19,163 nucleotides of DNA, taken from contig CAZUFC010000143.1 in assembly GCA_964619725.1 (NCBI GenBank), positions 1-19,163 on the forward strand, given 5' to 3'. This document shows positions 1-19,163 of the stretch, piece after piece (position 1 is the stretch's first letter; every line of letters begins with the position of its first letter). The DNA comes from an uncultured bacterium (lineage in GTDB: Bacteria > CSSED10-310 > CAZUFC01). The translations under genes and the position numbers were made by a program. Below the pieces are notes generated by a model, which saw nothing but the letters and a program-made list of their open reading frames with translations, made no database searches and was not told where the DNA came from.

Positions 1-453
1 TTCGTCAAACATTTCACAATTTTTTATCAGTCAATGTCAGGAGATGTGAAATTACCCTCCATGTGCACTTTAAATGGTGCACAAACTCGTTATTAAAACT
101 GAACCATACATGATATTGCCGGCGATGATCAGATACCCTTGTTTTTGGACAGCCTTTCGTTATTGGGGCATAAGAAAACAACCCCCTGGTCCGTTAATGC
201 TGAGGTTTCGCCTGCGTCTCGTTCCCGTATAAGCTCATGTTTTCGCCCTGTTGCCAGGGCGGTTCCAGAGCAGACAAAGGGTTTGAAAAAGTGTTGCACC
301 CATTTGATCGGTCACCATATCTTTAAATCAGGTTATGGTCCGTCGCCGGAATTTTATCCTGAACCATATCGTAAATATGTTCGATTCTCACCTCCCTTTC
401 AATTAATGTGGAGCAAAAAAGGCGACTGTTCTTACAGTATTTTGTTTATAGGT

Positions 454-508
454 AGTGCCTGTCCACTAACTCGATTCTCGATTCAAAATTTAATGCTGGA
501 CAGCCACT
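454..508. repeat. 55-bp mini-element with 12-bp terminal inverted repeats
   Basis: AGTGCCTGTCCA (454-465) and TGGACAGCCACT (497-508) are 11/12 complementary. The left end matches dispersed copies at 9131-9154 and 12796-12819. Confidence 0.65.
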
Positions 509-511
509 TGG

Positions 512-654
512 GTTTTTGATCCATAAACGGGCGAATTTATCTTAAAGCAATTAAGACAAGAATTTGCGAGGCAGGGGTAATGCATATACGTTGACTGATC
601 CAATCCGCAGCCAGACGCAGTATTGGGGGAAATTCGCCGTTTATGGACAAAAAC
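512..654. mobile_element. ~143-bp MITE-like palindromic element
   Basis: Arms GTTTTTGATCCATAAACGGGCGAATTT (512-538) and AAATTCGCCGTTTATGGACAAAAAC (630-654) pair at all 25 positions with two 1-nt bulges. The interior is non-coding. No clear target-site duplication. Confidence 0.6.
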
Positions 655-787
655 TAGGTAGCCGTGGTTTTTCCAGGGTCGCCGTCTTCTTTGGTAAGAG
701 GGGAATCGATACGCCGATTGTTATGATCGGCTCACTGAGTAAAATGTTATGAAAAAAGAGTAAATCCTGTTTGATCAGTCCTGGAAG

Positions 788-889
788 TTCGATTTCGATT
801 GCGATTACGATTGCGACCCCGACCCCGATACCGACCCCGATACCGATCCCGCCTCCGATTTCGAAACTCAACCCGACCCGGACCCCGAT
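788..889. repeat. Degenerate hexamer tandem repeat (nnCGAy), about 17 units
   Basis: CGA recurs every 6 nt from 790 to 844, then at 856, 862, 874 and 886. Confidence 0.9.
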
Positions 890-1028
890 GCTTAAACAAA
901 CGATCCTCGAAGAAAAAACAGCGTTGAATTCGTCAGACAGATAACTGCGGGCAAGGATCAGTTGTTTAATGGGGATTTCGATCAGTCAAGGGTTTTAAGA
1001 AAAAGTGCAGCCCCAAAATGATCAGTCG

Positions 1029-1149
1029 CAAAATTCCGTTTCTAATGTGAGACGGTTAATTTTCAAATACCGGTTTTTGCTTATACGAATGATTTAATAT
1101 TCCAGGCGTCCCTTCTGTCCCTTTGTCCCTTTGTCCTTTTGTCCCTTTG
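1029..1149 (-). repeat. Left copy of the ~120-bp inverted repeat flanking sppA, including 5 GTCCCT-core tandem units
   Basis: 1029-1115 matches the reverse complement of 4251-4337 at 75/87 nt without gaps. The GTCCCTTT-type tandem runs 1108-1149. Confidence 0.92.
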
Positions 1150-1167
1150 TATCTTCATTAATCTGAA

Positions 1168-3714
1168 TTAATTTTGGCGGTCCGACTGCGACAAGAGGAA
1201 GAGTTCCAGGTATTCGGATGGCATGATGGGCAGGGGTTTACCGTTATTTTTGAGGTAAATGTCGATCAGTTGCGATAGGGGTTCTTTCTGTTTTTTTATT
1301 TTAACCCCGAAGAGTTTGGGCATCAGGATACTGGTATCGAACAAATCGGGTTCGGGATATTCGATAATGTCGATTTTGACGTCTGGGGGGATTTCGGCTT
1401 TGACTCTGGCCAGTTCGACGGCGGTGTCCAGTCCTCCGATGAGGTCGACGAGTCCGGCTTCAATGCCGTCAATGCCTGACCATACTCGACCTTGTGCTAC
1501 CTTTTCGATCTCTTCGTAGTCCATGTTTCTGCCTTCGGCCACTTTTTCCACGAAATCGTGATAGAATGAGATGATGGTATCTTTCATGCGTTTTTGTTCT
1601 TTATCGGTGAGGTTTCGGTCGGGGAGAGTCATTCCGAGCAGGGGAATGCGGAAACCGAAGCCCAGATCGGCGTGTTCTCCGATTTTGACGTAGTCGGTGG
1701 TAACGCCTAATTTACTTTTGAAACCCTGGTCGTATAACCACCCGCCGATGACTCCGATGGAGCCTGTAATTGTGGTGGGAGCAGCTACGATCTGGTCGGC
1801 GTACATGGAGAGCCAGTAGCCCCCGGAGGCAGCGACCAGTCCTTGCGAGACTATGACGGGTTTTTTTTCGGTGCATTTTTTAACGGCTTCAGCGACGATA
1901 TCTGAAGCCAGTGCATCTCCTCCGGGCGAATCCACGCGCAGAACGACGGCTTCAATATCATCGTTCCTGGTTGCGCTTTGGACGTCTTTGACCAGCTTAC
2001 GTGCCGTTATTCCCTGGTCCATGGCGCAGACGCCCAGTGCATAAATGACGGCTATTTTCGGTCTTTCGCCCCAGTAGTCGTCGGTCGGCAGATGGAATTC
2101 ATCAAGCATGCCGGGTTGAACGAATTGTTTGTGCTCCTTCTTCAGTTCCTCTTTTTCCTCTTCGTCCCCTTCATCATCCTCGTCGCTCAGCATCTTGCGT
2201 ACGTCCTCCCAGTGCCCCAAACCATCCGCCAATCCCTGTTCCATGGCCGTTTCAGGCGTAAAAACAGTCACATCGTCAACCAGATTATCGAATTTTTCGT
2301 GAGTGATATTGCGGCTGTCGCAGATTTCTTTTTTTGCCGTGAAATACATGTCATCGAGGATGGCCAGGAGTTGTTCCTCTTCAGCATCGGACATGCTGTC
2401 CCGCGACAGCATCTCGGCCGCTGATTTATATTTCATGAACCTCCATTCGTCGAACCCTATCCCGAGTTTTTCCAGGGCGCCTTTAAAATAGTTATGTCCG
2501 AAGATGTAGCCCTGGAGCATGATCGTGCCTATGGGATCGAGGATGACTTTATCCGCTACGGAGGCGAAATGATATCCCGTTATATCGACGTTATCGATGT
2601 AGATGACCACTTCTTTTCCGGTTTCTTTGAATTCCGCGAGCTTCTGTCTTACTTCCCAGAGTTTTTCCCAATTTATCATCATTCCGGAAGTATTAATGAC
2701 TATGCCGCCTACGGAAGCGTCTTTTTCCGCAGCTTCGACGTAATCCAGAAGTCGGGCTAGAGTATTGGAGTCGTCGAACATAAGATAATTCTGATATTTC
2801 AGAGGTCCTTTCATGTCTAATTTCATGTATTTTTTGTCGCGGAAGGGACATTTTCCAAAGATATTTCTGTCCAGGGCGCCGACGCGAACTCCGAACGTAT
2901 TATACCCGTGGTCGCTTTCTTCATCGTAATGAGCCTGTGCGGTAACGCCGGCATAACCGAAGCTGAAATGGATTCCCACGGTGAACGATTCATCTTCGAA
3001 GTAGCGGCCGGCGAGCCGGATGCCGGGAAGAGGTTCGACCGCTGCGCCGGCGCTCCAGAATCCTTCGTCGAAGGTTTCACCGTCCTGGAGTGAATAATCG
3101 CCGAACAGGGAGAGTTTTTCGTTGCCGAAGGGTCGAACGGCCAGTTCCGCTATTCCTTCCTTGCCGGAGGAAGATGTTTCAAATAGGCCCGAAGCGCCGA
3201 GAGACAGATAGGGAAAAGGCCGGTACAAGGTTCCGATGGAAAAGATACTTTCACGATCGAATTCATCCTTGTCGCCGGATGACCAGCCGTAACCCAGCCC
3301 GAAACCGACTTCCCTGGTTCCGCCGGCAAGCGAAAGACGGAAATCCGTAACGCTTGCATCGCCGGCCTCTTCACGCATCACGCCGAAACCGAAATTAGGC
3401 AGGCTGGAAATGTAAGCCCAACGGTTTATATCGTTCCAATAACCGTCCTCTTCATCAGTATCGTCGCCATCGGTGTTTTCTTCATCTGACGGTAAGGCCG
3501 TATCCTGTTCCGACCAGGTAAAATACAGACTGGGCTCATGCACATAGGTCAGGACGGCTGGATTGACCAGACCGTAAAGGCCGAATCCCATAGCCCCGGG
3601 CGACGTCAGCAGATAATTGTAACGTTGATGGTATCCGCCGGTCTTTTCTTCGGCAAGTCCTGCCGCCGCAAGCATTACGATCGTCAGCATGACTGTTGCA
3701 AGAATCTTTTTCAT
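1168..3714 (-). CDS. sppA: Signal peptide peptidase SppA (peptidase S49, two-domain long form) with signal peptide and an extra ~260-aa N-terminal beta-strand-rich domain
   Basis: 848-aa ORF. S49 motifs: LRVDSPGG, AASGGYW (catalytic Ser), TITGSIGV, KYKSAAE (Lys base), VAQGRVWSG, GLVDLIGGL. The first S49 repeat (YHFASVADKVILDPIG) lacks the Ser. Signal peptide MKKILATVMLTIVMLAAAGLA; GAAAGGCGG upstream of the ATG. Confidence 0.93.
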   Translation of the reverse strand: MKKILATVMLTIVMLAAAGLAEEKTGGYHQRYNYLLTSPGAMGFGLYGLVNPAVLTYVHEPSLYFTWSEQDTALPSDEENTDGDDTDEEDGYWNDINRWAYISSLPNFGFGVMREEAGDASVTDFRLSLAGGTREVGFGLGYGWSSGDKDEFDRESIFSIGTLYRPFPYLSLGASGLFETSSSGKEGIAELAVRPFGNEKLSLFGDYSLQDGETFDEGFWSAGAAVEPLPGIRLAGRYFEDESFTVGIHFSFGYAGVTAQAHYDEESDHGYNTFGVRVGALDRNIFGKCPFRDKKYMKLDMKGPLKYQNYLMFDDSNTLARLLDYVEAAEKDASVGGIVINTSGMMINWEKLWEVRQKLAEFKETGKEVVIYIDNVDITGYHFASVADKVILDPIGTIMLQGYIFGHNYFKGALEKLGIGFDEWRFMKYKSAAEMLSRDSMSDAEEEQLLAILDDMYFTAKKEICDSRNITHEKFDNLVDDVTVFTPETAMEQGLADGLGHWEDVRKMLSDEDDEGDEEEKEELKKEHKQFVQPGMLDEFHLPTDDYWGERPKIAVIYALGVCAMDQGITARKLVKDVQSATRNDDIEAVVLRVDSPGGDALASDIVAEAVKKCTEKKPVIVSQGLVAASGGYWLSMYADQIVAAPTTITGSIGVIGGWLYDQGFKSKLGVTTDYVKIGEHADLGFGFRIPLLGMTLPDRNLTDKEQKRMKDTIISFYHDFVEKVAEGRNMDYEEIEKVAQGRVWSGIDGIEAGLVDLIGGLDTAVELARVKAEIPPDVKIDIIEYPEPDLFDTSILMPKLFGVKIKKQKEPLSQLIDIYLKNNGKPLPIMPSEYLELFLLSQSDRQN

Positions 3715-3819
3715 GTTTTCCGCCTTTCGTGAAGAACCGTATATTTCTGGAAACTTTTTTCGCTATAGAGTTTTGCTCCATTTAATTTCACAGCGAAATG
3801 AAGTCATCAAGCCGTCATG

Positions 3820-3847
3820 ATTATACACATTGCCGCCGTATATTCAA
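3820..3847 (-). promoter_or_regulatory. Candidate sigma70 promoter for sppA
   Basis: Minus strand TTGAAT (3847-3842), 16-nt spacer, TATAAT (3825-3820), about 105 bp upstream of the sppA start. Confidence 0.5.
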
Positions 3848-4024
3848 ATATCCAATCTTTCGGGCGCTGTTTGGTCTGCAGGAAAAAAAATATCCGCGAA
3901 ACTTCACGAATCTACGCGAAAAAAAGAGCTCGATATCCCTAAGTCGACGGGTTCATATTTGACATTGAAACTGATCAATCAGATGTTGCACTTTTTCCAA
4001 AATGTTTGACGGTTAATTCACGTG

Positions 4025-4074
4025 ATCGGCGTCGGGATCGGTACCTGTATCGAAATCGAAATCGGTATCGAAAT
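4025..4074. repeat. Degenerate hexamer tandem repeat (rTCGnn), about 8 units; inverted counterpart of 788-889
   Basis: TCG at 4026, 4032, 4038, 4050, 4056, 4062 and 4068. Confidence 0.85.
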
Positions 4075-4200
4075 ATGTAATTGAAAGGAGATTTGTTTTG
4101 TCCTGATCATATTTTCAAAACTTCTTATTTATTCACGGCTGCGAAAATTAGAACCTCGAAAAACGAATATCTGATCAGTCCGGAATTTTTATGCGAAGAA

Positions 4201-4337
4201 AGGGACAAAGGGACAAAGGGACCTAAGGGACCTAAGGGACCTAAGGGACGGAAGGGACGCTTGGAATATTAAATCATTGGTATAATCAAAAGCCGGCATC
4301 TGAAAATTAACCGTATCAGGAGATAAACGGAATTTTG
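4201..4337 (+). repeat. Right copy of the inverted repeat flanking sppA, including 7 AGGGAC-core tandem units
   Basis: AGGGAC at 4201, 4209, 4217, 4226, 4235, 4244 and 4253 (8-9 nt period), followed by the unique part homologous to the left copy. Confidence 0.92.
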
Positions 4338-4428
4338 GGGTTAGGATCAGTTTGGTTACAGGGGATTTCATTTAGGCGCTATTTTTACCGGAAGGAACTG
4401 CTGCCGCTTTTTGAACAGTCCCATTATT

Positions 4429-5325
4429 TTACTTATAGATTCTTTTGACGGCTTTTTCTACAGGGGTTCGCCATTTGTTGTGGAACCAGAAATAGTATTC
4501 TGGATGCTCCGCCGCTGCTTTTTCTATTTTCCGGTTCAGCAGTTTCGTAATTCTTTGGACTTCATCCTCGACAGTGGCGTCCATATTCGGATAAACCGGC
4601 GGATCGAAGCGCATTTTGTGAATACCTTTTTCATTTCTTCGTGATACGAGAAAAATAATGGGCGCCTGTGCTTTGACGGAAAGTATGGCCGGACCGGTAT
4701 GAGTTGACGCGGGTTTTCCGAAGAAAGGCACAAAAAGTCCTTTTTTGCCGGCATCCTGGTCCATCAGTATGCCGATATTTCCGCCTTGTTTCAGCAGGTT
4801 GAGTATTTTCAAAGTCGATTTGCCTCTTTCAATAAGTCCGACGCCTTTTTTGTTGCGAATTCGGGTGTAAAAGCAGTCGATGAGGATATTGTGTAAACGG
4901 GCCACGACGTATGTTAAGGGATATCCGTTGAGCGCCATGGGAAGTCCCATCATTTCCCAGTTGCCGAAATGACCGCCGACGAGAATGACTCCCTGGCCCT
5001 TTTTCTGCAGTTCTTCAAAATAATCGAAACCGTCGACTTCCATAAAATGTTGCATATTGTCGGCGGTTATCTCATCAAACCGGATATACTCAATCAAGTT
5101 TAGTCCCAGGTTAACGCACATCTCTTGTATTATCCGGTCAATCTGGTCCTGCGTTTTACCGGGAAAAGCGATCTTCAAATTTTTTCGGGCGACGTTGCGC
5201 CTGATGCCGGTAAGATAAGCCAGTCGACCCAGGCAGCGACCCAGAAAAAGGGCTGCCTGACGAGGCATTTTTTTTATAAACCAGGAAAGAGTGATCAAGG
5301 TATAATAGCCTATGAGATCGAACAT
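4429..5325 (-). CDS. lpxL: Lipid A late acyltransferase (LpxL/HtrB/LpxP family)
   Basis: 298 aa with an N-terminal membrane helix and motifs GHFGNWE (H-x4-E), ILMDQ, FVPFFGKPA and PEYYFWFHNKWR. Lies 5 bp downstream of lpxK. Acyl-chain specificity cannot be read from the sequence. Confidence 0.88.
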   Translation of the reverse strand: MFDLIGYYTLITLSWFIKKMPRQAALFLGRCLGRLAYLTGIRRNVARKNLKIAFPGKTQDQIDRIIQEMCVNLGLNLIEYIRFDEITADNMQHFMEVDGFDYFEELQKKGQGVILVGGHFGNWEMMGLPMALNGYPLTYVVARLHNILIDCFYTRIRNKKGVGLIERGKSTLKILNLLKQGGNIGILMDQDAGKKGLFVPFFGKPASTHTGPAILSVKAQAPIIFLVSRRNEKGIHKMRFDPPVYPNMDATVEDEVQRITKLLNRKIEKAAAEHPEYYFWFHNKWRTPVEKAVKRIYK

Positions 5326-5330
5326 AACGT

Positions 5331-6422
5331 TTATTCTCCGTCGGCGGATTCTACCGTTTTTTCGATAAGTCTGACGAATTGGTCTTTTTTGTCCGTGAAT
5401 TCAAGTTTGACGGTCAACATTGAAATATCGTCCGTGAGTTCCTTAAAATCCAGCAGCCGGACCGCGTCTTTTGCCGTGGTTATCACTCTGTCGGCGCCGG
5501 CATTCTTCGATTCCTCCAGCAAACGCTCAACATCTTTACGATCATAACGGTAATGATCTGGGAATGCCTTGAAATACAAAATGTTTGCCCCTACTTGCTC
5601 CATCGTCTTTTTAAATGATTCCGGTCGCCCTATGCCGGCGAAAGCGGCTGTTCTCATTCCTTGTAAAACAGCTAATTTTTCGGGAAGGCAGGTTTTAAGA
5701 TTCATCAGGCGGTCCGGTCGATGCCTGCAAAAGAAAAGGGGAGCATTTTCATTATATTTTTTAAGGTTTTCTGTAAGCGCTGTCCTATTTTCTATACGAT
5801 CATTATGCGTTACGACGATGGCGCCGGCTCTCTTGATGCCGGAGAGCGGTTCGCGTAAGGGGCCGGCAGGAAGTATCCCGGCGTCCAGACCGGACTTTTC
5901 GCCGTCGATCACCAGGATGTTCAACTGCCTATGAAGCTGAATGTGCTGATAAGCATCATCCAGGATGATAACGCCGGGGTGAAATGTTTTTTCGGCGAGA
6001 AGTCCGGCTTCATAACGGTCGGCTCCTACAATAACGGGTATGCTTTTTAACAGCCGGGCCATCTGATAAGGTTCGTCGCCCGCTTCCCGGGGAGTCGCCC
6101 GAATTTTTTCTCCGTCCGTCACGATCATAGGGTCTGAATCTCTTATACCCTTGTACCCCCGGCTTATGATGACGGGATGCTTTCCGGAACGAGCGTAAAA
6201 TTCAGCTATCCACATGGCAAGAGGCGTCTTTCCCGCGCCGCCTGCCGTAATATTTCCGACAGCCGTCACCGGCGTATCAAGCCTTTTCGTTTGTAATATT
6301 CCTCTCCTGTAAGCTATCTCACGCGATTTAACAATACCCGCATAAAGATAGGATAAAGGCAGCGTCCAGATTCTACCGAAAACTTTCTGTTCCACGCTGT
6401 TATGTTGATTTATTGCAGCCAA
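5331..6422 (-). CDS. lpxK: Tetraacyldisaccharide 4'-kinase
   Basis: Motifs VGNITAGGAGKTP (P-loop), ISRGY, AGDEP, LDDAYQH, LPAGPLRE, FAGIGRP, FPDHY, TTAKDAVRL. TTG start preceded by GAGAGGT. Confidence 0.96.
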   Translation of the reverse strand: MAAINQHNSVEQKVFGRIWTLPLSYLYAGIVKSREIAYRRGILQTKRLDTPVTAVGNITAGGAGKTPLAMWIAEFYARSGKHPVIISRGYKGIRDSDPMIVTDGEKIRATPREAGDEPYQMARLLKSIPVIVGADRYEAGLLAEKTFHPGVIILDDAYQHIQLHRQLNILVIDGEKSGLDAGILPAGPLREPLSGIKRAGAIVVTHNDRIENRTALTENLKKYNENAPLFFCRHRPDRLMNLKTCLPEKLAVLQGMRTAAFAGIGRPESFKKTMEQVGANILYFKAFPDHYRYDRKDVERLLEESKNAGADRVITTAKDAVRLLDFKELTDDISMLTVKLEFTDKKDQFVRLIEKTVESADGE

Positions 6423-6491
6423 GATTCAACCTCTCGCCGGTCGATACTGTTCGCCGGGTATCCAAGCGACGAAGGCGTAAGCATAATCGCC

Positions 6492-7829
6492 CTATTCCCC
6501 GGTCCTTTCCGGACCATAAGGCAATGCCGTCTTTAATTCATCCAGACACCTGCGGACAGCGCCCCGATTTTCATATATGGCCTGGCGACCCGCTTCACCG
6601 GCTTTTTTTCGTTTCCCCTCATCCTGAAATAGCTCCAGTAATCGCTCATAGAGCTCATTTTCATTTTTGATTTCAAAAGCCGCACCACGATCCTTCAACA
6701 ATGCGGCCGATTCTTTAAAATTATACATATGAGGTCCGAACAGGACGGGCAGGGAGAAGGCTGCCGGTTCAAGAATGTTCTGACCGCCGTGCGGAACCAG
6801 GCTTCCGCCCACAAAGGCAGCGTCGCCGGCCTGGTAGGCGGCCGCCAGTTCGCCCATAGTGTCCAGGATAATCACGTTTCTGGCTGTTTCATCGCTTCCG
6901 GTCCGGTTCGCATCCGGTTCACGCGGCATTTCCGATTTTAATGTGAATTCGATGTTTTTTGTTTTCAGACTCTCTTGAATTTCCGGGACTCTTTTCAAAT
7001 GCCTGGGCGCTATGATGAAGAACAGGCCGGGAATTTTTTCGCGGAGTCTGGAGTAAACGTCGACCAACCATTCATTTTCCCTGCCGTGTAAACTTCCGGC
7101 TATAAAAACAGGCTGATCGTTTTGTATCCCCAGTCTCCTTCGCCAGTCATTCTTTTCGACTTTTTCAATCCTCTGCAAAACCCCGTCATATTTCAGATTG
7201 CCGATTAGTTTAACCTTGTCCGGGGGCGCTCCGAGTTTAACTATTTTTGAGCAATCATCACCGGACTGCATCAGAAACCGGTAGAATTTTCCCAGTACTT
7301 TTTTCATGAATTTCCGGAACCGGAAATATCCTTTAAAAGAGTTATCGGAAATTCTTCCATTTATCAGAAATACTTTACAGTCGAATTTTTGCGCTGACTT
7401 GAGGAAGTTGGGCCAGATTTCCGTTTCCATCAAAAGCGCGCAACAGGGTCTGAGACGTTTCATAATACAGTCGGCGTTGCCGGGAAAGTCCAATGGGAAA
7501 AAAATAACCGCGTCCGCCCTCTTCGTTTCAGCCAGCGCTCTCCCGGTATCGGTCGTCACTGTCAGCAGTATTTTCAGTTTGGGATAAAAACGGCGAAGAG
7601 CCTCAATAATAACGGATGCCACATTAACTTCTCCGACGGAAACCCCGTGTATCCATATCCACTCATCATCGCCTTTCAGGGGAAAATTTTCAGGCAGAAA
7701 GCCGAAGCGTTCTTTTATTCCGGTACGATATCTTCCCTGAAATATCATTTTATAGAAGAAAAACGGCAAACCCATGAGGAAAGCCAGGGTGAAAAGCAGA
7801 TTATAAACGAGGTAACTCATAACGATCAT
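6492..7829 (-). CDS. waaA: 3-deoxy-D-manno-octulosonate (Kdo) transferase
   Basis: Motifs WIHGVSVGE, FPLD, ETEIWPN, NGRIS, GNLKYD, APRH, DTMGEL, FVGGSLVPHGGQNILEPA, GPHMYNF. The ATG at 7829 overlaps the lpxB stop (ATGA); 7820 is an alternative start. Confidence 0.96.
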   Translation of the reverse strand: MIVMSYLVYNLLFTLAFLMGLPFFFYKMIFQGRYRTGIKERFGFLPENFPLKGDDEWIWIHGVSVGEVNVASVIIEALRRFYPKLKILLTVTTDTGRALAETKRADAVIFFPLDFPGNADCIMKRLRPCCALLMETEIWPNFLKSAQKFDCKVFLINGRISDNSFKGYFRFRKFMKKVLGKFYRFLMQSGDDCSKIVKLGAPPDKVKLIGNLKYDGVLQRIEKVEKNDWRRRLGIQNDQPVFIAGSLHGRENEWLVDVYSRLREKIPGLFFIIAPRHLKRVPEIQESLKTKNIEFTLKSEMPREPDANRTGSDETARNVIILDTMGELAAAYQAGDAAFVGGSLVPHGGQNILEPAAFSLPVLFGPHMYNFKESAALLKDRGAAFEIKNENELYERLLELFQDEGKRKKAGEAGRQAIYENRGAVRRCLDELKTALPYGPERTGE

Positions 7830-9082
7830 ATCCTGTCTGAACTTGCAGAATCAGAAGATTCGGCATTCTGTGATCCGTCAACGCCTTCTTTGGACTGAAT
7901 CATGGGGGATTTTGGGGGATTCTTGCCGGAGCAGCCGTGATTCTTTTTTGAACGGATAAAGTCTGCTATAAGACGGGCGGCGCGTTGGGAAGCTCCGGGT
8001 TCTCCCAATTTTGCGGAGACTTCCTTGAGTCCTTCGACGATTCTGGATCGTTGAGGTTCCGACATCACGAATTCAAGCTCCCTGACTATATTTTCAGGCG
8101 TCACCTGGGATTGAATCAGTTCGGGAACCAATTTTCGTCCTGCAGTCAGGTTAGTTAAAGCGATATAGGGAACTTTGACCAGTCTTTTTGCGATGAAGTA
8201 ACTCAGTTTGGACATCTGATAACAGACGACCATGGGAGTGAAATGAAGGGCTGTTTCGAGGGTAGCTGTTCCGGAAGTGGTAACGACGGCTCGAGCGTTT
8301 TTTATGACGTTTGGACGCATTCCTTGGACGATGGGAAATGATATTCCCGTTTGCTGAAAAATTAAGCGCAATAGGTCATCGTCAATGGATTCGGCTTTAC
8401 AGATGACGGCCTGCAATTCGTTTCGTTCGCGGGTCATTTGCAGGGCGGCCTGCAGCATGGGCGGCAACATGCGTTGAATTTCCGATATTCTGCTTCCGGG
8501 CAAAAGCGCGATATAAGGTCGTTTCAAGTCTATGCCTTCAACTCTTTCCGCTTTATTCTCATTGCCCTCATCCTCATCATCGGGATACCTGTTCTTCAGC
8601 GGATGACCAATGAATTCGACTTCGATGCCGTAAGACGCGAAAAACTCCTTTTCAAAAGGCAGAATGACCGTCATCAAATCCGAAAAACGGGCCATTTTGA
8701 GGGTGCGTTTTCGTCGCCAGGCCCACAGTTGCGGACATATATGATAAATGACCGGTATGCCGGCGCTGTGAACCCGTTTGCCTATTCGAAAATTGAAATC
8801 AGGATAATCGATTAATACCAGGGCATCCGGTTTTTCCCTGATGATGCGTGATGCCGTTTCTTTGATTAACCGGCGTATCCGGGGAATATGCCGTATAACC
8901 TCGGTAATCCCCATGATGTTAAATTCAGACAGGTCCTGGAAAAGCTGAACCCCCTCAGCCTTCATCCGGCTGCCGCCTATCCCCTTCATGACTGTCCCGG
9001 GTCGTAAAAACTTCAATTCTCGCGCTAAGGCCGCGCCGTGTATATCGCCCGAAGTCTCTCCCGCTATGATGATAATCTTCAT
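7826..9082 (-). CDS. lpxB: Lipid-A-disaccharide synthase
   Basis: Motifs IAGETSGDIHG, IDYPDFN, PQLWAWR, ILPFE, FIGHPL, LLPGSRISE, SGTATLE, VPELIQ. Start moved to the ATG at 9082 (MKIIIIAGE), which matches the family N-terminus and follows GGGAGAGG. Confidence 0.96.
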   Translation of the reverse strand: MKIIIIAGETSGDIHGAALARELKFLRPGTVMKGIGGSRMKAEGVQLFQDLSEFNIMGITEVIRHIPRIRRLIKETASRIIREKPDALVLIDYPDFNFRIGKRVHSAGIPVIYHICPQLWAWRRKRTLKMARFSDLMTVILPFEKEFFASYGIEVEFIGHPLKNRYPDDEDEGNENKAERVEGIDLKRPYIALLPGSRISEIQRMLPPMLQAALQMTRERNELQAVICKAESIDDDLLRLIFQQTGISFPIVQGMRPNVIKNARAVVTTSGTATLETALHFTPMVVCYQMSKLSYFIAKRLVKVPYIALTNLTAGRKLVPELIQSQVTPENIVRELEFVMSEPQRSRIVEGLKEVSAKLGEPGASQRAARLIADFIRSKKNHGCSGKNPPKSPMIQSKEGVDGSQNAESSDSASSDRI

Positions 9083-9130
9083 GACCCTCTCCCGCTCCAA
9101 AACCGGAAATTCAGAACAATCTAACACAAT

Positions 9131-9154
9131 TAGCGCCTCTCCACAAACTCGATT
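9131..9154 (+). repeat. Dispersed 24-bp intergenic motif
   Basis: TAGCGCCTCTCCACAAACTCGATT is 21/24 identical to 453-476 (TAGTGCCTGTCCACTAACTCGATT). Confidence 0.75.
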
Positions 9155-9541
9155 TATCAATGAAATTTTCCGCTCGAATCAGAATATCCACATTCAGAAA
9201 ACAATTGTTCGGATTCCGCTGAGCAGGAATCACTCAGATCAACGCGGATAAGAGATGAAAAGATTGACAGATACTGTTGGCCGCATTTGAACAGACCCGA
9301 ATTTTATTGCAGTTTCCAAACCAAAAGATGGAACCGATATGAATTATACACTGTATAGTCGAGTTATACACTTTTGATCATTGCTGGGTGGAGAATTGCA
9401 TCATGGCCGGCGTTCAGGAGCTGTTTTATATCGTGAGTCCTGACGCTGCTTTTGCGTTTATCCGTCAGCGGTTTCGGGAGTTTTTCGGTTTTTCGCATAT
9501 GAAAAAACATGCTTTTTTACTTTTCCTGTTTGATGCGGAGT

Positions 9542-9558
9542 TTGGCCTGAGTTTTGCT
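9542..9558 (+). promoter_or_regulatory. Candidate sigma54 (-24/-12) promoter
   Basis: TTGGCCTGAGTTTTGCT has GG at 9544-45 and GC at 9556-57, exactly GG-N10-GC, with TGGC and TTGCT contexts. It ends 37 bp before the ATG at 9596. Confidence 0.6.
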
Positions 9559-9595
9559 ATTAAGTTACCCGGCATTTGTCGAAGGGAGTGAGCTA

Positions 9596-10051
9596 ATGAA
9601 TAATTCAACAAATGAAACGAAAGTATTAGTAGTTGACGACGAGCCTGTGGTTTGCCGCAGCGTCAAAAAGATTCTGTCGAAATATGAAAATTTCAGAATT
9701 GACGAGGCTCTTGATGCCAAATCCGCTTTGGACAAGATAGAGCATGATCGTTATGGAATCATTTTCGCAGATATGATCATGCCTGAAGTAGGCGGTATGG
9801 ACCTTCTTAAGATCGTGAAGGAGAAACATCCTGAGATCAGTTTCGTAATGATTACAGGATACGCCACCATAAAAACTGCAGTGCAGTCGATCAAATTCGG
9901 GGCATTGGATTACCTGCCCAAACCTTTTACTCCGGATGAATTGAAATTCGTTGCCGACAGAGCCTTAAAAAACTATAGAAACTACGTCAAAGAGCACACA
10001 TACGATTCCATTGAACTGACAAGCGAAGCGGATGCGCATTACGCCATCTGA
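9596..10051 (+). CDS. Response regulator receiver (NtrC-like REC) with a short tail and no output domain
   Basis: Motifs VLVVDDE, ADMIMPEVGGMDLL (phosphoacceptor Asp), MITGY, GALDYLPKPF. Start set at the ATG at 9596 after AGGGAG; 151 aa. Confidence 0.9.
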   Translation: MNNSTNETKVLVVDDEPVVCRSVKKILSKYENFRIDEALDAKSALDKIEHDRYGIIFADMIMPEVGGMDLLKIVKEKHPEISFVMITGYATIKTAVQSIKFGALDYLPKPFTPDELKFVADRALKNYRNYVKEHTYDSIELTSEADAHYAI

Positions 10052-10074
10052 ATTAGAGCGGAGTTAGTCCGTAA

Positions 10075-10126
10075 GCGCCTGCCCGTCAAATCATATTCGA
10101 TTAAAAATGCTTTGACGGTCAGGCGC
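10075..10126. repeat. 52-bp inverted repeat or mini-element downstream of the response regulator
   Basis: GCGCCTGCCCGTCAAA (10075-10090) and TTTGACGGTCAGGCGC (10111-10126) are 15/16 complementary with a 20-nt AT-rich loop and no U-tract. Confidence 0.75.
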
Positions 10127-10261
10127 GTGAATATGCCGGATGATCGATGCCGGAATTTGACTGCCGTAAGGCGGTTGACGCCAATGATTTGACTTTTTCC
10201 TGTTAATCATTAAATATTTAAACGCGACCGGGGTATTGAAACTGAGATCAAGGAGTAAATA

Positions 10262-12193
10262 ATGAAATTGAAAAAGGCGACGAAATTTATGCTTTTATGC
10301 GGTATTCTTGTTTTCATTTTTCCGGAACAAGCAATATTCGCTCAGTTTTCCCCGGACCCTCCGATAGACCTGGTGGATTTAAACGGTCGGAATTATGCGC
10401 AATCCGATCCCCAGGCTGTTGTCGGAGCATATTCTCGAAACGACATTTATTTTTGTTGGACCGACCTGCGTGAAGGCATGCCTAAAATATACCATACCAG
10501 GAGTATGAACGACGGACAGGACCTTCCTCAGCCGAATTACAGAATGGACCCTGAATGCCAGACATGCACGCAAATGTATCCTCAATTAATGACGGATAAA
10601 TATATGGGGACCGTTTATGCCTGTTTTCAGGAAAAAGACCCGCCTCAATTTGAGGAATTCGGGATTTACATGATGCGGAGCGAGAATTTCGGTTTGAATT
10701 ATGAATACAAGGTACGAATAAACGATGCGAATGAGGAGAGCATTAAACCGTCGATCGGTTTATCTGATTTCGGAAGGATATATGCGGTATGGACAAAGTT
10801 GGGAATGAATTCGACGGAGATAATGTTCGACAGAAGCACGGACGGCGGGAACACTTTTGGAAACGACATAATGGTGACGAATGATGATTATTCGGATAAT
10901 AATCCCGACATAGCCGTTTACAGCGGATTTGCGGATGATCAGATATGGGCGGTATGGGAAAGGGATGCGGGATTCGGCAGCAGTATTGCAGTCGCCAGGA
11001 GCGACGACAGCGGATACACGTGGTCTCAGGCGGCTTCTGTGTTCATGTCGCCTAACAACCAATACGATCCAAAAATAGAGATTAACGGACCGCGTTTCGG
11101 CGAACCGTTATCGATATATGTGACCTGGTCGGAACAAGTTTCAACCAGGGAGGCAATTTTCGTCGCCAAGTCCACGAACGGAGGCATGTCTTTCGATCTG
11201 GCGCAACCGGTCAATGAGAATCCGGGAGCGTTTGAAACAGGCCCGGCGGCTTTCAGCGTTGATTTTGACGGCGATCCTTACGTCTTCTGGCCGGAAAGAA
11301 ACGAACCTCCTCATTTGAAGATATCAGGGACATACAGTTGGGACCACGGCTTTGTATTCGCCCCGCCGACTTTTCTGACCCCGGAAATGTTTCCGGGAGA
11401 TGCGCGGCAGACTGATGTTTACGTTTCTCTACAGAAATACGCCTACATCGTCTATCAGCAAACCGGCTTTAATCCTGAAGCTCCTACGATTCTTTTCAAG
11501 AAATCTTATCCTCCTTTTGACGACAGTTTTAACGACGCGACGTTCGACGATTGGTCCGATTATTCCGGGATCGCCCAGAGTTCGAATCAGTTTCATGATC
11601 CGCTCGGAAATGCCTGTCAGTTCGGCGTTCCCGACAAGGGTCGACTTGCGGGCTTGCTTGAAAACACCTACGCTTCCCAGCAGGCAGGCATAGTTGATTT
11701 CTGGTTTTATGACGGGTATCCCGGCGCCGGATACATCAGCGCCGACTTTACCGTTACTCTCGAACAGCAATCTCCCGCCAAAGAAGGCGTCGTCCGTATT
11801 CTCGGCGTCGTCAATTCCAGCGACCCCCATACCTATTCCGTTTATGACGGCTCGAATTACAGTTCCACAGGCATTAGCAGAAGCGCCGGATGGCATAGAG
11901 TCATCATTCAAACTTCATCCGGCGGAATCACCATGCTGCTTGATGCCGCGAATTTCCCGGGAGGGCAACCCGTGTATACCGATACGTCTTTCACCTGGTT
12001 CGACAGGATCGCCTTCGAAGGCGGTACCGAAACCACGCCTTATTACCTGGACAGCGTTAGATTCTGGCTCGACGGTTCATTGACCGTTCCGGCAATCTCC
12101 AGCGCCGGCGCCCTCTTCCTGCTCCTCGCTCTTTCCCTGACCGTATTATACGTTAAAAGAAAACAAATCAGCGCTATTAACCCCACTCAATAA
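10262..12193 (+). CDS. Secreted BNR/Asp-box (sialidase-like beta-propeller) protein with a beta-rich C-terminal domain and an IPTL-CTERM-like membrane anchor
   Basis: Signal peptide. Six Asp-box-like motifs: SMNDGQD, SENFGLNY, STDGGNTF, SDDSGYTW, STNGGMSF, SWDHGFVF. C-terminus VPAISSAG, then a hydrophobic helix, then KRK. AAGGAG RBS. Confidence 0.8.
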   Translation: MKLKKATKFMLLCGILVFIFPEQAIFAQFSPDPPIDLVDLNGRNYAQSDPQAVVGAYSRNDIYFCWTDLREGMPKIYHTRSMNDGQDLPQPNYRMDPECQTCTQMYPQLMTDKYMGTVYACFQEKDPPQFEEFGIYMMRSENFGLNYEYKVRINDANEESIKPSIGLSDFGRIYAVWTKLGMNSTEIMFDRSTDGGNTFGNDIMVTNDDYSDNNPDIAVYSGFADDQIWAVWERDAGFGSSIAVARSDDSGYTWSQAASVFMSPNNQYDPKIEINGPRFGEPLSIYVTWSEQVSTREAIFVAKSTNGGMSFDLAQPVNENPGAFETGPAAFSVDFDGDPYVFWPERNEPPHLKISGTYSWDHGFVFAPPTFLTPEMFPGDARQTDVYVSLQKYAYIVYQQTGFNPEAPTILFKKSYPPFDDSFNDATFDDWSDYSGIAQSSNQFHDPLGNACQFGVPDKGRLAGLLENTYASQQAGIVDFWFYDGYPGAGYISADFTVTLEQQSPAKEGVVRILGVVNSSDPHTYSVYDGSNYSSTGISRSAGWHRVIIQTSSGGITMLLDAANFPGGQPVYTDTSFTWFDRIAFEGGTETTPYYLDSVRFWLDGSLTVPAISSAGALFLLLALSLTVLYVKRKQISAINPTQ

Positions 12194-12200
12194 CGCTGAT
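12167..12200. terminator. Hairpin at the convergent junction of the BNR and PilZ genes (possible terminator or 3'-stabilising stem)
   Basis: ATCAGCGCTATT (12167-12178) and AATAACGCTGAT (12189-12200) are 11/12 complementary with a 10-nt loop. A weak T-rich run follows on the minus strand only. Confidence 0.35.
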
Positions 12201-12204
12201 GAAT

Positions 12205-12546
12205 CTAATTCCCGTTATCAGAATTGTTTTTCCTCAGACGAACAAGTTCTATGCCGACCTGATAAGCCTCTCCCTTCAAATCCGGACGCGAATACACCAC
12301 CTTCCCCAATGCTGAAATCGTCGTATTTTTCTTCACGTTCTTTAATGCAAGATACAAATAAGAATTTTCCTTTAACGGCTCATTCGTTACTATCATAGCC
12401 CCGTTGCGGCTTACGTTCACCGTCCTGCCGCTCTTCGTTTCAGTCCCCTCCGTCTCTCCAGTCAAATAATCCACATGCATATCGGAGGACACGCGTTTCG
12501 ACTTTCTTTTCTCTTTTGTAAATTGATCCCCTGAAGTCTCGTTCAT
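12205..12546 (-). CDS. Stand-alone PilZ domain protein (putative c-di-GMP receptor)
   Basis: 113 aa with RxxxR (RKSKR) and D/NxSxxG (NVSRNG) motifs, plus GKVVY and YQVGIEL strands. GAAGGAG RBS. Confidence 0.88.
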   Translation of the reverse strand: MNETSGDQFTKEKRKSKRVSSDMHVDYLTGETEGTETKSGRTVNVSRNGAMIVTNEPLKENSYLYLALKNVKKNTTISALGKVVYSRPDLKGEAYQVGIELVRLRKNNSDNGN

Positions 12547-12596
12547 ACTTTAACTCCTTCACACAAGTCTGGTTGTAGCTCGCCTACCCAGTATCC

Positions 12597-12661
12597 TTTT
12601 TACAAAAAAACAAAAAAATTGTCAATTTCAACTCCGGGTAATGTAAAAAAATATTTTTACA
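12597..12661 (-). promoter_or_regulatory. Candidate promoter and palindromic operator upstream of the PilZ gene
   Basis: Minus-strand TTGACA (12625-12620), 17 nt, then a weak -10 TAAAAA. Palindrome TGTAAAAA-AATA-TTTTTACA at 12642-12661. Confidence 0.35.
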
Positions 12662-12795
12662 GCGAACTGATTTTTCCTGTTTCGTAAAATTTTCATCTCA
12701 AGTGAAAGAGGCGACAGGAACGAAAAAGATGCGGGTTTCGATAAGGACATCGACTGGCGGCAAAGCGTAACGCAGGGGAGGAATTTCAGTAACGC

Positions 12796-12819
12796 TGTCG
12801 CCTGTCCACAAACTCGAAT
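12796..12819 (+). repeat. Dispersed 24-bp intergenic motif, third copy
   Basis: TGTCGCCTGTCCACAAACTCGAAT shares the GCCT(G/C)TCCAC(A/T)AACTCGA core with 453-476 and 9131-9154. Confidence 0.75.
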
Positions 12820-12850
12820 AGTCTGTTAAAAAGGACTTATGGTGCGTACT

Positions 12851-14173
12851 TTAACGAATATATCCCAAAGATTTCAGGGATTCGATCTGTTGATCATCCA
12901 GTTCGATTTTAACTTGCTCGCTGAAATAGTGAGAGCAATGTATTTCAAAGTCCATGAACTTTTTGAGCAATTTTTCGGCTAATACAGGATGTTGTGTATA
13001 GATATTCTGATTTTCCTGCGGATCATTTTCCAGGTTGTAAAGGGCTTTATTATTGGGATCGACATGAAGCGCTTTCCAGGGTCCGTGAAGTACGGCCCGG
13101 AAAATCTGCTGGAAGTCCTGGTTCTGTTTGTTGTCGAGGTATGAAAAAGCGGTTTCCGGCTTTTCATCCGGTTTTTTCCGTTTGAGAAAATCCATCAGGC
13201 TTTGTCCTGCGGATTCATTTATGGGGTCAAGTTCCAGATAATCGATCAGTGTCGGCAGAATATCCATATTGGAAACAATTGAGTTAATGCTGACAGGACG
13301 GGCAGCGCCCGTCGGCAATCTGATCAACAGGGGTACGTGAATGACCGAGTTATGAAGGGAAAAACCATGCCCGAATCTATGGGTTTCCCATAGTTCCTCC
13401 CCGTGGTCTGATGTAAGAACGAATATGGTATCATCCAGCCAGTCGAATTTGATAAAAAGTTCTTCCAAATGTTCGTCCACATACCGTATTTCGCTGTCGT
13501 ATTTTGACTTGTAATCTTCCGGGAACTCAGGTTTCTTCTCATACAGAGGCGGACGACCGTGAGCCGGCTGATGCGGATCGTTATAATGCAAATAAATAAA
13601 ATAAGGATCGGCATTTCTGATTTCATTCGTCCAGGACATCAAGGCTTCATTGACGCGTTCCGCACCCTGGTAAGTAAAATTAGCGAATTTGTCGAAACCC
13701 CGGCTGAAACCTTCCGCTTCACATATGTTAAGATTATCGGTTACGGCGAATGTTTTGTAACCGGCATTTTTCAACTTTTCCGGAATAGTCGTGAGGGAAT
13801 CGGGGATTCTGTTGATGAGGGCCGACGGATTCGTTTTAAGTTCTTTCTGGAAAGCCAGCATTCCATTGACTACGCCGTGCTGGAAAGGATAAACGGAAGT
13901 GAATATTGAAGCTGTGGAAGGCGGGGTCCAGGATGAAGCTGAGTAAGCATTGATGAAGAGATAGCTGGACCGGGACAAATCAGAGAGGAAAGGAGCGGTT
14001 TCCCGATCGTAGCCGTAAAAGGGCAGTCTGTCCGCGCGCAATGTATCGATGACCGCCAGGACGATATTGGGTTTTTTAGGGGCTAGTTTCGCTGACTGAT
14101 CTGAATTATGAAGCGTGACCGCAAGAAAACAGAGAATCAGGATCAAAAGGATTGTTTGGATATTCTTTTTCAT
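12851..14173 (-). CDS. Sulfatase-like alkaline-phosphatase-superfamily protein, exported or membrane-anchored, non-canonical active site
   Basis: Motifs PNIVLAVIDTLRADRL, SWTPPSTASIFTS, HYNDPH, YDSEIRYVD, TSDHGE, HVPLLI, DILPT, LYNLENDPQE and C-terminal LKSLGY. Start set at MKKNIQ (14173), which precedes a hydrophobic helix. Confidence 0.88.
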   Translation of the reverse strand: MKKNIQTILLILILCFLAVTLHNSDQSAKLAPKKPNIVLAVIDTLRADRLPFYGYDRETAPFLSDLSRSSYLFINAYSASSWTPPSTASIFTSVYPFQHGVVNGMLAFQKELKTNPSALINRIPDSLTTIPEKLKNAGYKTFAVTDNLNICEAEGFSRGFDKFANFTYQGAERVNEALMSWTNEIRNADPYFIYLHYNDPHQPAHGRPPLYEKKPEFPEDYKSKYDSEIRYVDEHLEELFIKFDWLDDTIFVLTSDHGEELWETHRFGHGFSLHNSVIHVPLLIRLPTGAARPVSINSIVSNMDILPTLIDYLELDPINESAGQSLMDFLKRKKPDEKPETAFSYLDNKQNQDFQQIFRAVLHGPWKALHVDPNNKALYNLENDPQENQNIYTQHPVLAEKLLKKFMDFEIHCSHYFSEQVKIELDDQQIESLKSLGYIR

Positions 14174-14536
14174 TTTTTCAAATTCACTGAAGCAGGAGTC
14201 GCTTTGCCGCAGAAGCAAAGTAAATAAATTGTAACGGATAATCGGTTTGCGACCAAGTAAAAGTTTTCAAAGTCCGCGATTATACAGGCATATTTTTTAG
14301 GGAAATCCTGCGCCGGCAGTGGATAAGGCCGCTCATCACGGATAAAAGAAGCAGAGATTCGCCAAAATTATGAATCCTGTTCGATCAGCTCAAGGCGAAC
14401 GACTGCAAAGAGGTTGAGTTTCTCATTATGGATTGATAGATTTTATGTACAGAGGAGCGGGAATGCAAGTTGCGATCATCAGGATCATGTTTTTCCCGGC
14501 ATACGAGTCATTGAATGGGAGAGGGAAAATGAATCG

Positions 14537-14590
14537 GCGCCTGTTCAAAAGCAGAATTGAAATCAGCATTTGAGTTTATTGACGGGGCGC
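14537..14590. repeat. 54-bp degenerate mini-element upstream of hutU
   Basis: GCGCCTGTTCAAAAGC ... GAGTTTATTGACGGGGCGC. It has the same GCGCC...GGCGC ends and similar size to 10075-10126, and its right arm reverse-complements to ...GTCAATAAACTC, like the 24-bp motif. Confidence 0.5.
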
Positions 14591-14650
14591 TGATCAGGAT
14601 CGATTTAACGGTTAATGACGAATAATTAATGGAAACTTTGGAGTAGAGAC

Positions 14651-16669: not shown

Positions 16670-16769
16670 CGCCGGTAAAAGGGAATGCTGAATATTGCAG
16701 GCCGTCGCACGATGTTGAATTCCCTGCCCTGGAATGTCGACTGCAGTCAAACGACTTTGTGACTCACTT

Positions 16770-16797
16770 ATTCGCGTGATTAGCGTGATTCGTGGTT
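16770..16797 (-). repeat. Three-unit CACG(C)GAAT-type short tandem repeat
   Basis: Minus strand reads AACCACGAAT-CACGCTAAT-CACGCGAAT, 22/28 identical to 18971-18998 on the plus strand. Confidence 0.75.
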
Positions 16798-16807
16798 TCA
16801 AATAATA

Positions 16808-17635: not shown

Positions 17636-17664
17636 TAAACGAACCTCCTGTTGAAGAGTCAGAA

Positions 17665-18786: not shown

Positions 18787-18970
18787 AAGCACTCCTTTTA
18801 AAGTTTGCTTTGTCGGGCCGTTCACTAGAAAATTGCCCGACGGATCACGCTGCGGCGTTGAAGTTATCATAAAATAAAATATAACAATGCGGCAGCAGAT
18901 GCAAGAAAAAGTTAGTTCAACCTGATTTGCGAAGGATGCGAGCAGCATATTGCATTGCCGTATTTTTTAC

Positions 18971-18998
18971 AACCACTAATCACGCGAACCTAGCGAAC
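18971..18998 (+). repeat. Three-unit CACG(C)GAA-type short tandem repeat
   Basis: AACCACTAAT-CACGCGAAC-CTAGCGAAC. A looser relative with a 10-nt period lies at 3894-3920. Confidence 0.7.
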
Positions 18999-19142
18999 AA
19001 GAATGTCAACATTACCGTAAAACAAACGCCGTTAAGCTTTTATACAGCAACGAAATCCTAAAAACCATCCACGGTTGCCTATATTTCCCAAGAAATTCGA
19101 TTATTCTGACAAAAAAAATCATCGCCAAAGAACGAAGCGAAA

Positions 19143-19163
19143 GTAGAAGCGGCATCCTGCCGC
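19143..19163 (+). repeat. GTAG-type REP-like palindrome, truncated by the window end
   Basis: GTAG-AA-GCGGCA-TCC-TGCCGC: a GTAG tetranucleotide followed by a perfect 6-bp GC-rich stem. Confidence 0.65.

Follow-up and report, generated by a model that had tools for sequence, protein, structure and literature searches.

Mirrored, diverged repeat units carrying a GATCAGT motif in the non-coding spacers that flank sppA of an uncultured bacterium

The two non-coding spacers on either side of the signal peptide peptidase gene sppA in an uncultured bacterium (GTDB lineage Bacteria; CSSED10-310; CAZUFC01; assembly GCA_964619725.1, contig CAZUFC010000143.1) share a small set of short, diverged repeat units, three of which are mirrored about the gene. 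The analysis covered positions 1 to 19,163 of the contig, referred to here as the window. sppA lies at 1168–3714 on the minus strand, with at least 1167 nucleotides (nt) of non-coding DNA to its left (1–1167) and 714 nt to its right (3715–4428). An initial annotation had described five modules, A to E, which occur in both spacers in shuffled and flipped order and are joined mostly at the heptamer GATCAGT. The repeat structure is more extensive than was then seen, with four copies of module B, an inverted-repeat element and G-rich arrays, and it is also more orderly. We tentatively favour the explanation that the spacers are a locally nested set of short, lineage-specific repeat units together with simple-sequence arrays, derived from an old inverted duplication and from small local events.

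Module C forms an inverted pair (1013–1155 against 4355–4208) that is 80.4% identical over 148 nt, longer than first annotated; the expectation value is 1e-31 when only the spacers are searched and 1e-28 in a self-search of the whole window. Each of the two copies consists of about 95 nt of unique sequence joined to a G-rich tandem array, and their longest exact run is 17 nt. The left copy (1013–1155), whose forward sense is on the minus strand, starts 13 nt after the sppA stop codon and scores 106.6 bits with a profile of the C core. It is made up of an AAGGGAC-type array (1108–1150), an AT-rich core, a hairpin at approximately 1030–1063 and a distal TGATCAGT at 1019–1026. The right copy (4208–4355, plus strand, 110.4 bits) has its AAGGGAC array at 4199–4258, a core with TGGTATAAT, a hairpin at approximately 4303–4336 and a distal GATCAGT at 4345–4351. 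Read in the forward sense, the order is the AAGGGAC array, GCYTGGAATATTAAATCATT, a -10-like hexamer, a bulged hairpin of the form AAAATT-AA-CCGT, variable loop, ACGG-AATTTT, and GATCA(G) 4–9 nt further on.

The arrays of the two C copies differ in both length and period: there are four AAGGGAC units on the left and seven on the right, and Tandem Repeats Finder (TRF) reports a period of 8 with 5.2 copies and a period of 9 with 6.8 copies, respectively. The C arrays therefore evolve independently on the two sides. The left array lies 13–60 nt past the sppA stop, on the coding strand, and distances of 171 nt and 485 nt separate the right array from the genes on either side. Module A, the second inverted pair (792–841 against 4074–4025), is likewise confirmed at the scale of the window, with 76% identity over 50 nt and an expectation value of 6e-5. 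It consists of a hexamer tract: the left copy (790–889, plus strand) has about 17 CGAYNN hexamers, which make its plus strand C-rich and hence the sppA sense strand G-rich, and the inverted right copy (4025–4074, minus strand) has about eight. The C-rich strands point toward sppA from both sides.

The pairwise evidence for module B is weaker than for A and C. The segments 994–1031 and 4002–3965 are 74% identical over 38 nt, with an expectation value of 4e-4 when the spacers alone are searched; in the window-scale search the pair does not appear at a threshold of 0.05. A profile built from three copies (262–325, 974–1040 and 3955–4022 reversed) nevertheless picks up a previously unseen fourth copy at 739–781 (expectation value 6.6e-4). 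With all four included, the profile scores the copies at 42–48 bits, compared with 8.2 bits for the next best site in the window and a maximum of 6.3 bits in 20 shuffled windows. B1 (264–323, plus strand, 46–51 bits) ends in GATCGGT, one mismatch from the heptamer, and is 71% identical to 980–1034. B2 (729–791, plus, 42.3 bits once included in the profile) has GATCAGT at 773 and abuts module A. B3 (976–1038, plus) has GATCAGT at both ends, at 980 and 1020, and overlaps the distal end of C. B4 (3961–4016, minus) has ACTGATC at 3970. B is therefore a family of at least four copies of about 55–60 nt, with B1 and B2 more distant than the B3/B4 pair and with the consensus GTCAA..TTT..GAAAAAGTGCA..(11–12 nt)..TGATCAGT. 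Further B-like stretches at 1–40, 889–945 and 4150–4186 are suggestive only. The first of these, at the very start of the contig (GTCAAACATTT...ATCAGTCAATGTC), resembles 4011–3961 reversed and is not significant against the B profile; a contig start in B-like sequence would fit an assembly break in repeated DNA.

Modules D and E are smaller. The D copies are in direct orientation (949–979 and 4338–4369, both plus strand) and are 81% identical over 32 nt; the similarity holds in the spacer-only search (expectation value 0.004) and is not significant at the scale of the window. The left copy reads GGATCAGTT..GGGGATTTC; the right copy overlaps the end of C and, lying on the same strand as the left one, runs against the mirror that A, B and C follow. 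Module E does not survive as a repeat, being a 10-nt exact match (772–781 and 4172–4181) with an expectation value of 2.5. Its left copy is the 3′ end of B2 (729–791), and its right copy (4169–4187, plus strand, CTGATCAGTCCGGAA), an 8-nt palindrome followed by the CGGAATTTT motif, scores 4.1 bits against the B model, which is not significant and within the range of shuffled sequence. A related end that had been proposed at 763–778 and 14373–14388 does exist as a pair, but at chance level: about six pairs of 16-mers with at most one mismatch are found per shuffled window, and the B model gives the site a score of 3.8 bits.

Modules A, B and C all change strand from one spacer to the other, and when read toward sppA they have equal orientation on both sides. 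The order toward the gene is B2, A, 86 nt including D, B3 and C on the left, and C, 133 nt, A, 8 nt and B4 on the right. The module orders given originally match the coordinates. Of the shuffling and flipping read from them, one transposition and the flipped D stand; the mirrored A, B and C and the retained adjacency of A and B (8 nt apart on the right; A followed by B-like sequence on the left) do not correspond to free shuffling. The arrangement can be accounted for by one mirrored block, one relocation (of C or of A–B), a flipped D of about 30 nt, one insertion and older extra copies of B, which is far short of free shuffling. The identities of the modules are 80–84% for C, 81% for D, 76% for A and 74% for B3/B4, and these broadly alike divergences fit one old segmental duplication over an older expansion of B.

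In the explanation that we favour, an ancestral block holding A, B and C would have been duplicated in inverted orientation around sppA, and the 16–26% divergence would make this an old event. Subsequent local events would have moved C relative to A–B, flipped D, inserted about 80 nt between A and B on the left and added copies of B. The tandem arrays would have lengthened and shortened independently through slippage, resulting in the 8-nt period on the left and the 9-nt period on the right. The sequence (T/G)GATCAGT(C/T), with its palindromic TGATCA/GATC core, may have provided a recurrent microhomology for template switching or illegitimate recombination. The palindromic core would permit joins in both orientations, and the explanation calls for no dedicated enzyme acting at the motif.

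The heptamer is strongly over-represented, as had been claimed. GATCAGT/ACTGATC occurs 12 times in the window, compared with a mean of 1.84 in dinucleotide shuffles, and none of 200 shuffles reached 12. Eight of the 12 are in the non-coding sppA flanks (594, 773, 956, 980, 1020, 3970, 4173 and 4345). The initial annotation had counted exactly eight in these approximately 1.9 kb; all eight positions are correct and all are non-coding, but a ninth falls within the annotated span (594–4369), at 1264, in the coding sequence of sppA. The other three (9835, 13244 and 14095) are also in coding sequence, and the remaining 1802 nt of intergenic DNA of the window, in six regions, contain none. The Poisson probability of at least eight heptamers in 1881 nt is 2e-11; when descent of B is taken to cover three of them and descent of D two, five independent origins remain and the probability is 1.4e-6. 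The density is 4.25 per kb in the sppA spacers and 0.109 per kb in 1.11 Mb of unrelated bacterial DNA. The palindromic core TGATCA is present in six of the spacer heptamer sites, with CTGATCAG at 4171 and again at 14590. An exact-string search of one literature collection, for the array units as well as the heptamer, found no description of the motif or of the modules, the matches returned being judged unrelated from their titles.

The heptamer is found in three of the four B copies (B1 having the one-mismatch GATCGGT), in both D copies and at the distal end of both C copies. It had been placed mostly at the module boundaries, but at every heptamer-bearing block end it lies 4–12 nt inside the homology. 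The distance is 9–12 nt from the 3′ ends of the B copies (for B1, measured from GATCGGT), with the additional heptamer of B3 4 nt from its start; 7 nt from the start of each D copy; and 7 nt (left) and 4 nt (right) from the distal ends of C. Since homology continues past the heptamer, GATCAGT is a conserved subterminal motif common to the unrelated unit types B, C and D rather than an established breakpoint.

Two explanations invoke an enzyme that acts at the motif. In one, the second of the two options in the initial annotation, a trans-acting site-specific recombinase would use the TGATCA core as its crossover and would assemble, reorder and invert non-coding cassettes. Such an activity would suit the stretch at 956–1026, where three heptamers are spaced 24 and 40 nt apart and a palindromic core would permit both inversion and excision; D is indeed flipped with respect to its neighbours, and its left copy is bounded by heptamers on both sides (956 and 980). 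However, homology passes through the heptamer, which is surrounded by neither a conserved recombinase-binding arm nor an attC-like fold; the window encodes no recombinase, and the flipped unit is a single 32-nt similarity whose expectation value of 0.004 comes from a small search space. We regard this as a remote possibility. In the other, which is a long shot, a trans-acting enzyme of an uncultured FCB-group (Fibrobacteres–Chlorobi–Bacteroidetes) lineage, a nuclease or recombinase of HUH or other type, would recognise and cut (T/G)GATCAGT(C/T) and would copy, reorder and flip short non-coding units around housekeeping genes. A trans-acting enzyme at the heptamer would, if it exists, make the locus an example of a cassette-shuffling system for non-coding DNA, producing mosaic intergenic arrays.

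The left spacer also holds an element that resembles a miniature inverted-repeat transposable element (MITE; 512–656, about 145 nt, no strand assigned). Its 25-nt terminal inverted repeats (514–538 against 653–630) are 88% complementary, and the 91-nt centre between them contains the ACTGATC at 594. As single-stranded DNA (ssDNA) the element has a predicted folding energy of −28.7 kcal/mol (z −5.3), and none of 200 shuffles was as stable. In sequence, the arms (..ATAAACGGGCGAATTT..) are similar to those of the C hairpin and to the recurrent CGGAATTTT/ACGGTTAAT motif.

A rival explanation makes B, C and D members of a non-autonomous mobile family that is spread through the genome (similar to MITEs, to repetitive extragenic palindromic (REP) sequences and bacterial interspersed mosaic elements (BIMEs), or to BOX elements) and whose elements insert into or beside one another, with GATCAGT as part of the recognised end and with a transposase or HUH nuclease supplied in trans. 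The enrichment of the heptamer and its subterminal position in three unit types are what such a family would show, as are the bulged subterminal hairpin of C, 4–9 nt from the heptamer, the terminal inverted repeats of the 145-nt element with arms like those of the C hairpin, and a contig that begins in B-like sequence. Mosaic clustering is typical of BIME and BOX elements. On the other hand, all copies of B, C and D and the eight non-coding heptamers are beside one gene, and profile searches found no B or C copy in the other six intergenic regions (1802 nt). B has no hairpin or terminal inverted repeats, the four copies folding as ssDNA with z values of −0.28, +1.21, +0.02 and +1.37 (200 shuffles each). 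Reading of the sequence shows no target-site duplication around C or around 512–656, and the latter is present once in the window. The copies are 16–40% diverged, with no young ones among them. The homology blocks overrun the heptamer by 4–12 nt, and the apparent shuffling reduces to a mirrored block, one transposition and one flipped 30-nt unit. Consistent with the initial annotation, no transposase, recombinase or HUH nuclease was found by Pfam among the 13 open reading frames (ORFs) of the window. Searches of plasmids (with both spacers) and phages (with the right spacer only) gave one 38-nt match, to the array, on an Acetobacter plasmid and nothing else. The B and C-core profiles, run against the 1.11 Mb of unrelated bacterial DNA, gave a best expectation value of 0.26, as expected for unrelated genomes. 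We consider a mobile family less likely than local duplication but a serious rival. Were the units found to be dispersed and bounded by the heptamer, they would constitute a short interspersed repeat family that is new, from a little-known lineage of the FCB group, and a pointer to its enzyme.

Several short motifs besides GATCAGT recur in the spacers. The 9-mer ACGGTTAAT is found at 1052, 4009, 4306 (minus strand) and 14608, and the 9-mer CGGAATTTT at positions including 347, 1030 (minus strand), 4181 and 4328; the two often adjoin a GATCAG site. It is possible that these motifs, together with GAAAAAGTG and GATCAGT, are selected binding sites for a protein, whether a transcription factor, a nucleoid protein or a reader of GATC methylation, which with the terminators and G-rich arrays would insulate or regulate sppA and the lipopolysaccharide (LPS) operon upstream. 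The sites are predominantly non-coding (GATCAGTC at five of six, CGGAATTTT at four of five and ACGGTTAAT at four of four), and GATC itself is denser in the non-coding DNA of the window (7.1 per kb, 26 sites) than in the coding DNA (4.4 per kb, 68 sites). The symmetric arrangement, with the C-rich strands facing sppA, and the presence of a terminator-like hairpin would also suit such a role. However, the similarity spans whole blocks of 55–148 nt, which points to shared ancestry and not to convergence, the window's other promoter regions do not contain the motifs, no matching regulator was identified, and two to four copies are too few to show an excess of conservation. Binding sites are, in our view, an improbable explanation.

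The explanation by local duplication has difficulties of its own. A single mirrored duplication does not by itself yield A-B-C on the left and C-A-B on the right, nor the flipped D, so that extra events are needed. Five independent origins of the heptamer in 1.9 kb are a lot for passive microhomology, and a site recognised by a protein would give that number. A MITE-like element with 25-nt terminal inverted repeats lies within the left spacer, and the start of the contig in B-like sequence hints that the repeats also occur beyond this locus. An outward promoter in C was rejected: the hexamer is not conserved (TGGTATAAT on the right against TCGTATAAG on the left), and a promoter scan called neither. 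A structured RNA in the C core was rejected as well, both strands having z values of −0.07 to −0.97 relative to shuffles, with nothing in Rfam near gathering scores. The left array fits a G-quadruplex (G4) motif only with a 13-nt loop.

Two present-day roles are likely for C and its arrays. A scan flagged a terminator-like hairpin at 1036–1055, followed by TTAATTTTCA, on the plus strand of the left copy; by sequence, the right-hand equivalent lies about 100 nt after the stop codon of the minus-strand lpxL-like gene. The hairpin and its T-run may thus act as a weak bidirectional terminator, after sppA and after the lpxL-like gene. A canonical G4 motif is present in the right array at 4202–4229, one of only two in the window. 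The AAGGGAC arrays would be G-quadruplex-prone repeats, as described near the ends of ORFs in other bacteria. A consensus fold of the two C-core sequences gave nine pairs with one compensatory change, which is too little to judge.

Both sppA spacers are non-coding. None of their ORFs matched Pfam (one ORF tested) or NCBIfam (seven tested). With a codon log-odds model built from the 12 genes of the window, 13 spacer ORFs score −0.36 to +0.12, compared with 0.01–0.52 for the genes and a mean of −0.25 for off-frame controls. A 126-residue ORF at 139–519 and a 60-residue ORF over module C had no match in the protein collection, not even to themselves, which makes this null result uninformative on the copy number of the modules. 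Rfam gave nothing at or near gathering scores, and ARAGORN found no tRNA genes. A coding reading of the hexamer tract, whose frames by eye give Asp-X repeats or peptides rich in I, P and T, was rejected because codon positions 1 and 2 vary with a fixed C at position 3, the codon scores fall where non-coding sequence does, and no protein family matched. An FNR/CRP-type box, a dif site and an oriC-like GATC cluster were also considered by eye, with no consistent match across copies.

Arrays like those of module C are widespread. A pattern scan of bacterial genome contigs for three AAGGGAC units spaced 1–3 nt apart found them at a minimum of 125 loci of unrelated bacteria, a number that stands by itself and not as a frequency relative to arbitrary units. 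Among the matches listed, the loci belong to Acidobacteriota, Planctomycetota, Verrucomicrobiota, Lentisphaerota, Chlamydiota, Bacteroidales, Desulfobacterota, Armatimonadota and others, and some metagenome-assembled genomes (MAGs) hold three or four array loci each. A regular expression finds 144 array stretches in the 125 listed loci (1.11 Mb). In the listed loci of at least 3 kb, 66 of 88 arrays are outside crude long ORFs, and the 22 inside include high-GC genomes, for which the ORF model is unreliable. Arrays on opposite strands within 300 nt of one another, forming long hairpins, are present at seven of the 125 listed loci. Another array with a period of 5–12 is found within 250 nt at 72 of them, at 1.69 per kb near the arrays and 0.685 per kb far from them; this count used a permissive TRF threshold, and some of the neighbours are variants of the AAGGGAC unit. 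Among the matches listed, 31 of 53 arrays have the nearer ORF on the 5′ side of the G-rich strand, a weak trend (P 0.27). In a Balneolaceae MAG (L014), TGTTCAA/GTTCGAA arrays stand beside AAGGGACT arrays, which resembles the combination of the TTCGAT-type tract and the AAGGGAC array in the window. Example sites are L014 at 10001–10166 and L025 at 9150–9243, together with L087, L088 and L113. A BLAST search of the window against the 125 listed loci gave array-to-array matches only.

The gene at the centre of the locus encodes an 848-residue S49 signal peptide peptidase (Pfam PF01343, Peptidase_S49, expectation value 1.3e-66), residues 317–792 of which align with TIGR00705. The N-terminal region of about 316 residues has no Pfam or NCBIfam match. 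Homologues of about 805–815 residues and of equal extent (96–100% coverage) are common in metagenome bins of the FCB group; the closest relatives are at most 56% identical, and the named ones are MAGs of Eisenbacteria, Ignavibacteria and Bacteroidota. The window, which is a complete contig, thus comes from an uncultured member of the FCB group that has no close relatives in the collections searched. The best sigma-70-like promoter match upstream of sppA is at 3820–3847 on the minus strand (TTGAAT-16-TATAAT, 10 of 12 positions) and is a match to the consensus only. About 580 nt of the right spacer lie beyond this likely promoter, and the repeats are all outside it. To the right of sppA, the minus strand carries a run of LPS genes, comprising an lpxL-like lipid A acyltransferase gene, lpxK, a Kdo (3-deoxy-D-manno-octulosonic acid) transferase gene and lpxB, with more genes beyond.

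Three further repeats were seen in the window. The motif (G/T)(C/T)CAC(A/T)AACTCG occurs four times (74–90, 460–476, 9138–9154 and 12803–12819), each time on the plus strand and within non-coding DNA or at its border; two of these sites are upstream of the minus-strand lpxB and PilZ genes, and it may be a promoter or operator element. An inverted pair at 16760–16807 and 18961–19008 (75% over 48 nt, expectation value 5e-4 at the scale of the window) carries GCGTGATTA repeats, one copy being upstream of a pyridine-nucleotide oxidoreductase gene and the other between the urocanase and rhodanese-rubrerythrin genes. A 52-nt near-perfect palindrome (10075–10126, 81%) directly follows a response-regulator gene and is probably a bidirectional terminator; it includes TTTGACGG, an 8-mer present seven times in the window.

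The locus illustrates how long bacterial spacers can be composed of a few diverged units, with a palindromic short motif recurring at the unit ends, and how the duplication of a segment can take a minisatellite with it together with unique sequence. The occurrence of AAGGGAC arrays across many phyla extends the described class of G-rich 7–9-nt repeats and is possibly of wider use than the locus itself.

Among known systems, an invertible DNA segment (inverton) is flanked by inverted repeats, is served by an invertase and occurs in a population in both orientations. Inverted copies of C flank sppA, but their identity is only 80%, no exact run in them exceeds 17 nt, and no invertase is encoded in the window. 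Integron attC arrays differ in that there is no fold around the heptamer-bearing units here, the core is GATCAGT rather than GTTRRRY, and the window has no integrase. MITEs, of which the Correia elements of Neisseria are an example, are closer: the 512–656 element has 25-nt terminal inverted repeats and a length of about 145 nt, and C is about 150 nt with promoter-like and terminator-like sequence. Unlike MITEs, no target-site duplication is present at 1013/1155, 4208/4355 or 512/656, the 512–656 element has one copy in the window, and C has an internal hairpin only, with no evident terminal inverted repeats.

BIMEs, which are composed of REP units in enterobacteria, and the BOX elements of pneumococci are modular intergenic repeats. 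The REP unit is a 20–40-nt imperfect palindrome that folds as a hairpin, is present in tens to hundreds of dispersed copies and is associated with RAYT (REP-associated tyrosine transposase), a Y1 HUH transposase whose gene often has REPs on its flanks. The sppA spacers share with BIME and BOX elements the intergenic clustering of a few short units (30–60 nt) that are non-coding, often follow gene ends, and vary in number, order and orientation. They differ in that the units here are bounded by a GATC-containing heptamer. In contrast to REP units, the B units are not imperfect palindromes and are without the GTAG head, and there is no RAYT or other enzyme among the 13 ORFs of the window.

In their tandem portions, A and C belong to an already described kind of G-rich simple-sequence array. 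In the part of their study that concerns Xanthomonas and Nostoc, Rehm et al. (2015, PMC4692102) report the G-rich heptamer repeats GGGNATC and GGGGA(C/T)T as genome-wide and over-represented in non-coding DNA, with a preferred position, on the coding strand past the stop codon, that is also that of the left array. The arrays at sppA resemble these repeats, as presented there, in their tandem 7–9-nt units each with a G3 tract (AAGGGAC here, GGGGACT in Nostoc), in their non-coding location and in a copy number that differs between related copies (PMC4692102). Measured against the same part of that work, they differ in that the unit is 8–9 nt rather than 7, only the right array fits the strict four-tract motif (loops of 1–7 nt), and the array adjoins a unique 95-nt sequence that is also present in duplicate. 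The TAACTGA heptamer direct repeats of Beggiatoaceae, Cyanobacteria and Bacteroidetes (MacGregor 2015, PMC4679880) are, like the present arrays, short, tandem and intergenic, and are spread across distant phyla with, in the portion of that paper drawn on here, no evident transfer mechanism. Those repeats are placed in the same portion a few nt upstream of start codons, (PMC4679880), whereas at sppA the left array follows a stop codon and the right array is found 485 nt upstream of the start of the gene. In the explanation we favour, the locus would be a mosaic of short intergenic repeats that is specific to its lineage and behaves much as clusters of BIME and BOX elements do, combined with G-rich arrays of a published type.

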